Notes: generated by a model from the letters alone, not told the origin. A stretch of DNA of 13,080 nt from a virus (IMGVR_UViG_2563366976_000005), one strand, 5' to 3'; positions 8,801 through 9,447 are shown, counted from the stretch's first letter. A program made the numbers and translations.

Positions 8801-8830
8801 GGAAAAGAAAACCCGGCGCGGTTGCCGGGT
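8801..8830 (-). terminator. Intrinsic terminator ending the cI-lipoprotein (immunity) transcript
   Basis: Stem acccggc(8811-8817)/gccgggt(8824-8830), 6-nt loop; on the - strand followed by UUUUCUUUUCC; 7 nt past the lipoprotein stop. Confidence 0.6.
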
Positions 8831-8837
8831 ATGATTA

Positions 8838-9218
8838 TCAGTCAGCCCAACCTGATTTCGAGTTTATTTGGGTTTCTGACATTGTGTATTTCTTAATCGT
8901 GTCATCGTTAAAAAGAATAGTAAGTTCTTTTTTCGTACCGTTCGTTCCATTATGGAATAATCCATAGAATGGAATAAAAGTGGTGCCATTAACTTTTACT
9001 TTTGCAAAGGCGTACTTCCAGATCTCGTTTCCACTGTCAGTATATGAAACAGCATCAGGAGAACCAAAGTAAGATTTAACCTCATTCTTGGTTGTTTTAC
9101 CTTCCTGAAGTTTAGACTGGACACTAATTTCAGTTTCATTTTTGAGTTGCTGGTTGCCTGAAGAAGCACACCCAGCCAATACAGATGCCATCATGGCAGC
9201 GATTAGGATTTTTCTCAT
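8838..9218 (-). CDS. Phage-encoded lipoprotein (126 aa), BamE/SmpA-OmlA-like pattern; moron in the rexAB-equivalent position
   Basis: Signal peptide MRKILIAAMMASVLAGC with lipobox LAGC; the mature part (EVKSYFGSPDAVSYTDSGNEIWKY...ELTILFNDDTIKKY) resembles the small BamE/OmlA lipoprotein pattern. Flanked by a 230-bp AT-rich region upstream and a terminator downstream. Confidence 0.8.
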   Translation of the reverse strand: MRKILIAAMMASVLAGCASSGNQQLKNETEISVQSKLQEGKTTKNEVKSYFGSPDAVSYTDSGNEIWKYAFAKVKVNGTTFIPFYGLFHNGTNGTKKELTILFNDDTIKKYTMSETQINSKSGWAD

Positions 9219-9447
9219 TTTATGTTTCCATTCATTATAATCAGAAACATCTTAACATAATGATTCGAAATAAAAACCGCTACGAGATAGGGGGACATTT
9301 TGCTGACAGTAGCAACAAATCTCAGCTAACAACGAGAATATTTACTGAAATATGCAAACAGATTTGGCGTTCTTATAGAGAATTTAGTGCAATATCTAAT
9401 CCGAGTGGTATAAACCTTAACCTTCGCTCCCTTAAGTCGTAGATAAA

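Follow-up and report, generated by a model that had tools for sequence, protein, structure and literature searches.

Phage lipoproteins and repressor-adjacent cargo genes

Cor of phages phi80, N15, and HK022, Llp of phage T5, and Lpp021 and Lpp010 of the mEp phages are small phage-encoded outer-membrane lipoproteins. Cor and Llp act at FhuA. A role of Llp at FhuA is described in a preprint (bioRxiv 10.64898/2026.03.26.714494), and the mEp lipoproteins exclude OmpA- and LamB-dependent phages (PMC11893012). In this study, we analyzed a stretch of viral DNA of 13,080 nucleotides (IMGVR_UViG_2563366976_000005, hereafter the window), which represents the left arm and immunity region of a lambda-like prophage of Escherichia coli. 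We focused on positions 8801-9447, where a gene encoding a predicted outer-membrane lipoprotein of 126 amino acids is located between the cI repressor gene and the terminator of the immunity operon. This kind of element is already known, as a lysogenic-conversion lipoprotein moron in a repressor-adjacent hotspot, and the family has been catalogued as PHROG 3135 and named by NCBI. The protein is, however, unrelated in sequence to Cor, Llp, and the mEp lipoproteins; tblastn gave no match to their phages, and no solved Llp structure was among the fold matches. In addition, the genes for Cor, Llp, and the mEp lipoproteins are found among tail genes and are tied to a given receptor, whereas the gene in the window is not.

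The position of the gene also has described counterparts. Lambda rexAB and BTP1 bstA occupy the same slot downstream of the repressor gene and are probably co-transcribed with it (PMC8585504). The cI-adjacent slot of BTP1 carries BstA, the cI locus is a mosaic hotspot with high transcription in lysogens, and the slot is transcribed together with the repressor in related phages (PMC8585504). However, rexAB and bstA represent cytoplasmic or inner-membrane abortive-infection systems, whereas the gene analyzed here encodes a single predicted exported lipoprotein without a match in PADLOC.

SEN1984 of Salmonella Enteritidis, a 378-bp gene on the excisable island ROD21, encodes an exported protein or lipoprotein that was predicted to be BamE-like (PMC10655114, PMC3198454). 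It belongs to the same family, and RefSeq places the name "SEN1984 family lipoprotein" on the identical E. coli gene, although SEN1984 sits on an excisable island and the gene in the window adjoins a phage repressor. The SmpA/OmlA lipoproteins of temperate Pseudomonas phages (B3, PP9W2, and the D14 series) also have a phage-borne BamE fold, with 30-38% identity to the window lipoprotein (E ~1e-7) and Foldseek probabilities of 1.00 and 0.98; those of PP9W2 and B3 were the nearest viral models. They differ in being shorter (~80-128 amino acids) and in belonging to Mu-like phages.

A variable cargo slot between the repressor gene and the immunity terminator

A preliminary description, made from the sequence alone, had proposed a self-contained unit between the cI stop codon (9448) and the PL operators (~8630-8700), with an AT-rich upstream region, a lipoprotein gene, and a strong terminator. 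All of these elements were present where it had placed them (Table 1), and the identity and anatomy of the unit can be given with high confidence. The region 8560-9460 is 99.9% identical to that of Escherichia phage PhiR26_1, the record of which labels the lipoprotein open reading frame (ORF) as "hypothetical protein, putative lipoprotein".

The same cI (99.6-100% identity) was found in six phages of the collection. PhiR34_1 and Turner have a 100% identical cI and the same OL/PL region, with an empty slot and a distance of ~125 bp from cI to the PL region. In PhiR5_1, which has an identical cI, the slot is occupied by a HipA-like kinase and a partner (Pfam HipA_2, 1e-76; PADLOC PDC-M66A; locus L180, 3813-5386). 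PhiR47_2 and IdasGreatGrand carry a two-gene unit matching the PADLOC candidate defense system PDC-M11 (PDC-M11A/B; locus L181, 3759-5187), which is annotated as GevT/GevA and in which the second protein has an ASCH domain. According to the alignment, the left junction of the slot is the cI stop codon, directly after which the sibling sequences diverge, and the right junction is the terminator hairpin CCCGG..ACCG.GCCGGGTTTTCTTTT, where they converge again. The lipoprotein gene is thus a true insertion, as siblings whose cI is identical either lack cargo in this slot or carry a different one. It represents a horizontally acquired moron in a variable position flanked by cI and the immunity-operon terminator.

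In Salmonella phage S107 (locus L002, 2295-4381), cI is accompanied by BstA, split into two ORFs (PADLOC, 9e-100 and 9e-17), with the lipoprotein gene directly downstream. These results support the view that the slot is a cargo and defense hotspot and that it matches lambda rexAB by its position between cI and OL/PL, in agreement with the rexAB-like accessory locus assumed in the preliminary description. The base composition of the insertion differs from that of the prophage: the GC content was 34.1% in 9219-9447, 38.1% in the coding sequence of the lipoprotein, and 37.6% in 8801-9447, compared with 47.7% for the prophage, and the GC content at third codon positions was 35% for the lipoprotein gene and 51% for cI.

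The terminator downstream of the gene is strong, as had been claimed, with a 7-bp stem including six GC pairs and a folding energy of -14.1 kcal/mol (z = -3.3; none of 200 shuffled sequences folded as well). Nevertheless, it is not private to the unit. The same terminator follows the empty slot of PhiR34_1 as well as the cargo of PhiR5_1 and PhiR47_2; as the hairpin is found with any cargo or with none, it belongs to the phage backbone and ends the immunity operon. A comparable terminator stands after rexB in lambda.

A BamE-fold lipoprotein distinct from BamE

The N-terminus of the protein (MRKILIAAMMASVLAGC) consists of a positively charged n-region (MRK), a hydrophobic core, and the lipobox LAGC (MRK-ILIAAMMASV-LAGC), which matches the pattern [LVI][ASTVI][GAS]C. 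The signal peptide covers residues 1-16, followed by Cys17 (9170-9168), which is invariant in 61 family representatives. The mature protein begins with C-A-S-S-G-N and thus has Ala, and no Asp, at position +2. Asp at this position is the Lol avoidance signal of Enterobacteriaceae. With Ala at +2, therefore, the Lol pathway should place the lipoprotein in the outer membrane. The protein is accordingly predicted to be lipidated and sorted to the outer membrane, a prediction that concerns sorting and not surface exposure.

A BamE-fold domain was identified at residues ~30-120. The full-length protein matched phrog_3135 (E 2.9e-48; residues 1-124 on profile positions 1-114 of 114), and the Pfam BamE profile (PF04355) was matched by 52 of the 61 family representatives (E <= 0.01). 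The window protein itself scored 21.8 bits against a gathering threshold of 23.2 and aligned to profile positions 10-68 only. Comparison of the family profile with E. coli BamE by hhalign gave a probability of 88% over 89 columns at 22% identity, leaving the N-terminal PDINQGN of BamE (Pfam profile positions 1-9) unmatched. The PDB sequence search gave only marginal matches to BamE (E ~0.03), and in the NCBIfam release searched there was nothing past signal-peptide matches and no SEN1984-family model was matched. The structure model based on a shallow alignment was poor (pLDDT 65) and was replaced by a second model, in which residues 78-90 form a low-confidence loop. This loop corresponds to a family-specific insertion (residues ~76-92; 14 residues absent from BamE) carrying FIPxxGLF, a hydrophobic hairpin. 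The motif (N/T)-F-I-P-x-x-G-L-F is the best conserved in the family, with a nearly invariant Pro83.

Taken together, Pfam, hhalign, and fold comparison provide a solid assignment to the BamE/SmpA-OmlA fold, bearing out the BamE/OmlA-like pattern noted earlier. The protein nevertheless falls outside BamE proper. BamE is a lipoprotein subunit of the β-barrel assembly machinery (BAM) and a core chromosomal gene product, whereas the window lipoprotein scores below the Pfam threshold, lacks the N-terminal segment, contains the conserved insertion, and is an optional cargo of prophages. In spite of this, RefSeq names the prophage gene mostly "outer membrane protein assembly factor BamE" and once BamD, with the newer name "SEN1984 family lipoprotein" also in use (E. 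coli hits H35-H64).

The fold could be read as that of a BAM modulator, in which a BamE mimic on BamA/BamD would aid the insertion of phage β-barrels or alter which host receptors reach the surface. We consider such a role improbable: the segment PDINQGN has no counterpart, the insertion carrying FIPxxGLF is foreign to BamE, and lom and similar genes are present in most lambdoid phages without the lipoprotein gene. Moreover, the fold is generic, being shared at similar Z scores with BLIP-like inhibitors and a type VI secretion system (T6SS) immunity protein. The fold matches to BLIP and BtiO suggest yet another role, that of a periplasmic inhibitor or orphan immunity protein. It would bind and neutralize a toxin or enzyme arriving in the periplasm, for example an effector of a T6SS, a bacteriocin effector, or the cell-wall hydrolase of a phage tail. 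This role is quite unlikely, as the sequence identity of 10-18% indicates a resemblance of fold only, and no effector gene was found as a conserved neighbor in the 179 loci with a family member that were sampled for comparison of flanking regions.

Upstream signals and predicted expression in the lysogen

The preliminary description had assigned the gene an AT-rich upstream region of its own. The region is indeed AT-rich, but only the proximal ~45-60 nt travel with the gene in other lineages. The distal ~170 bp were found only in 24 near-identical loci and in 69 E. coli genomes, always alongside the gene, and are thus specific to the phage lineage of the window. No terminator-like site was found on the minus strand between cI and the lipoprotein gene, where the fold of the spacer is weak (z = -1.2). 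Therefore, read-through from the cI promoter into the gene is possible.

The proximal block opens with TGTTAAGAT, or with TGTTAGGAT, TGATAGGAT, or TGTTAATAT in other copies, all of which correspond to the extended -10 pattern TGnTAnnnT. This pattern was present in 39 of 72 distinct upstream regions, compared with 7.8 expected, and was clustered 35-45 nt before the ATG. In divergent pairs, the identity was 76% for the upstream 45 nt and 27% for positions -60 to -46, compared with 49% for third codon positions and 93% for first and second codon positions. The upstream block is thus conserved beyond synonymous sites. Copies located within late operons have the same block and are preceded by a terminator; a hairpin with a T-run also follows nearly every copy of the gene, including those in late operons. 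A simple sigma-70 scan found no promoter on the minus strand, whereas the moron layout of the other copies argues for a predicted promoter of the gene's own.

Several additional features were noted in this block. The sequence TAAGATGTTTCTGA (9242-9255, minus strand), which reads TAAGATGTTTCCGA in the majority of the other copies, overlaps the -10 element and is a candidate RcsB box, given its resemblance to TaAGaatatTCctA. The predicted leader CCGATTGCAATCAATGGAAA is unusually conserved. A 5' hairpin sequestering the ribosome-binding site was considered and rejected, because its fold was not significant (z = -1.8) and it was unsupported in copies from the tape-measure context.

Distribution of the family and purifying selection

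The family is chromosomal in many Proteobacteria. An exhaustive search yielded 1332 cluster representatives (E <= 0.001), of which 309 reached E <= 1e-10, with relatives at 40-50% identity in Burkholderiales, Neisseria, Moraxella, Zetaproteobacteria, Nitrospirae, and others. Outside Enterobacterales, no recurrent partner gene was found and the neighbors were unrelated housekeeping genes. The preliminary description had named homology to a housekeeping lipoprotein as an argument against its proposal; the homologues do lie among housekeeping genes but are equally uncharacterized, which neither refutes nor supports it.

In Enterobacterales, the copies are found almost only on mobile elements, with two hotspots among the analyzed loci: 66 copies lie directly after a cI-type repressor gene and 26 directly before a tape-measure gene. 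Close relatives occur in prophages of Citrobacter, Enterobacter, Serratia, Klebsiella, and Salmonella, and one copy was found on a ParAB plasmid-like contig. Cargo genes found close to the tape-measure copies encode, among other products, a SocA/Panacea-domain protein, a YafO toxin, and an antirepressor. The identical protein is encoded on at least 1000 public contigs, and 69 of 5426 complete E. coli genomes (~1.3%) contain the cassette.

The median dN/dS was 0.043 (728 pairs, 79 distinct alleles), and the median dN was 0.08 for the mature part compared with 0.36 for the signal peptide, showing strong purifying selection on the lipoprotein. This result bears on the proposal that the gene is a silent passenger of the slot, unexpressed or without selectable effect in E. 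coli. H-NS often silences AT-rich foreign DNA, the DNA of the gene is of this kind, and in one genome (ET201, hit H56) an IS1 element lies inside the cassette. Given the low dN/dS, the conserved upstream block, the wide occurrence of the identical protein, and the lack of a terminator between cI and the gene, a silent passenger is nonetheless very improbable.

Small genes accompany the lipoprotein gene in some of the other loci. An ORF of 65-99 amino acids follows it on the opposite strand in 33 loci (e.g., L006, 6413-6619, minus strand); it is absent from the window and matched nothing in Pfam or PADLOC. In Serratia prophages (L016-L018, 6381-6668), the lipoprotein gene overlaps the start of a 95-amino-acid ORF with a signal peptide, and in L147 and L168 a second lipoprotein gene (MTRISVVAILSLILTGC...) lies downstream. 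The Serratia overlap and the gene pairs of L147 and L168 may represent small envelope operons.

Possible role in superinfection exclusion

Among the roles considered, superinfection exclusion at the outer membrane is tentatively favored as the most likely. In the lysogen, the gene would be transcribed by read-through from the cI promoter as well as from its own extended -10 promoter. The lipoprotein would be lipidated at Cys17, and its BamE-like domain might bind a conserved envelope protein through the FIPxxGLF hairpin. The prophage would benefit if incoming phages were prevented, at the outer membrane, from using their receptors or delivering their DNA. We rank exclusion first because the occupants of the slot (lambda rexAB, BstA of BTP1, PDC-M11, and the HipA-like kinase) lean toward anti-phage functions and because Cor, Llp, and the mEp lipoproteins, which block other phages in this way, provide a precedent. 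A more specific version appears unlikely, namely that a phage-borne BamE paralogue docks through the hairpin on BAM or on a conserved outer-membrane barrel from the periplasmic side and gives broad, receptor-independent protection against phages. If true, it would represent a new class of exclusion acting through outer-membrane biogenesis and not through the masking of a single receptor.

Several observations weigh against exclusion. Association with a cargo slot is weak evidence of function. Literature searches gave no expression or phenotype data for the gene or any homologue, and those covering the PhiR phages, GevT/GevA/HipD, and phage SmpA/OmlA lipoproteins found no paper on the lipoprotein gene or the function of its family. 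No PADLOC family matched the lipoprotein at E <= 1, and there was no similarity to Cor past the signal peptide (phrog_1119 Cor, E 0.066). The protein is highly conserved across host genera and not diversifying, although an arms race with phage receptor-binding proteins might lead to diversification instead. Linkage to one receptor-binding domain was considered and rejected: in many phages lacking the gene, the J protein has a C-terminus 96-100% identical to that of PhiR26_1, IdasGreatGrand has the same J C-terminus and cI as PhiR26_1 with other cargo, and the gene is also found in prophages with quite different tail modules. Finally, the family members outside Enterobacterales have housekeeping neighbors and no phage context, suggesting that the ancestral role of the family was a general one in the envelope.

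An envelope role could also take the form of a conversion factor for fitness or virulence, for which Bor of lambda is the model. The lipoprotein would then strengthen or modify the outer membrane, providing resistance to stress, serum, or host factors, with no direct effect on phages. This is possible but rather doubtful, as the literature gives no phenotype and no link between SEN1984 and virulence was found there, and as both slots mostly hold defense or toxin-antitoxin-type cargo.

Other features of the window

The remaining features of the window are those of a lambda-like left arm with its immunity region (Table 1). A host gene at 1-1284 adjoins the prophage, and to the right of cro a YdaT-like gene occupies the position of cII, followed by O and P. 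On the minus strand, the OL/PL region aligned to PR/OR (10170-10215) via TTGTTGAC(G/T)A..AAAACAAC.ATAGTTTTAA, and the half-site GTTGTT is clustered in both regions, with 20 matches in the window compared with 8.9 expected (none of 200 shuffled sequences reached 20). An Rfam scan of 8000-10600 at a permissive threshold gave two chance-level matches and nothing else.

Table 1. Coordinates of the features identified in the window.
Feature	Position	Strand	Remarks
int and xis	1418-2684		
exo, bet, and gam	6311-8075		
kil	8151 to ~8530		
OL/PL, leftward early promoter with GTTGTT/AACAAC operator half-sites	~8630-8700	minus	Alignment to PR/OR
Intrinsic terminator of the immunity operon and right junction of the slot	8801-8837	minus	Stem 8830..8811 and T-run
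Lipoprotein ORF, 126 amino acids	8838-9218	minus	
Conserved upstream block	9219-9277	minus	~45-60 nt next to the ATG common to other copies of the gene
Shine-Dalgarno sequence GGAA	9229..9226	minus	7 nt before the ATG
Perfect TATAAT, lineage-specific second element	9239..9234	minus	TGCAAT in others
Extended -10 element TGTTAAGAT	9257..9249	minus	
Leftover T-run of an upstream terminator	~9268-9277	minus	
Lineage-specific AT-rich spacer	~9278-9447 (~170 bp)	minus	Private to the phage lineage of the window
cI repressor, 229 amino acids (HTH_3 and Peptidase_S24)	9448-10137	minus	Pfam S24 1.2e-18, HTH_3 5.4e-13; phrog_4 8.7e-73
cro	10242-10472		

Two candidate coding regions were rejected. An ORF of 85 amino acids on the plus strand (9185-9442) was judged spurious, as it overlaps the promoter block and the gene start in antisense and the region is absent from other lineages. 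The 136-amino-acid ORF containing kil (8151-8561, minus strand) has an arginine-rich, N-like extension at its N-terminus, which is probably non-coding because PhiR34_1 has an in-frame stop there; the match to the Kil family is confined to residues 60-135.

The interval between PL and kil (8440-8628, minus strand) contains no N-type gene and instead a leader of ~190 nt, which is 96% conserved in the lambda-like phages 4A7, D2, 1W, 3W, and Perceval and several PhiR phages. The leader starts with a hairpin with a 9-bp stem (-17 kcal/mol, z = -2.3), showed no match in Rfam and no similarity to HK022, and possibly represents an RNA element in the early left operon. Over its whole genome, PhiR26_1 carries further envelope or defense cargo, including an OmpD/NmpC-like porin after Q, Bor, Lom, an omptin protease, and PD-lambda-1.

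Significance of the lipoprotein family

The gene is common, strongly conserved, and found in two slots for defense or conversion genes of prophages. The wide mislabeling of its product as BamE can mislead genome annotation as well as studies of outer-membrane biogenesis. Its phenotype is easy to test, because natural controls are available in siblings that share the repressor but have other cargo or none in the slot. A negative outcome would identify a family of envelope fitness genes, and an exclusion or conversion phenotype, if true, would establish a new type of outer-membrane conversion or exclusion protein.
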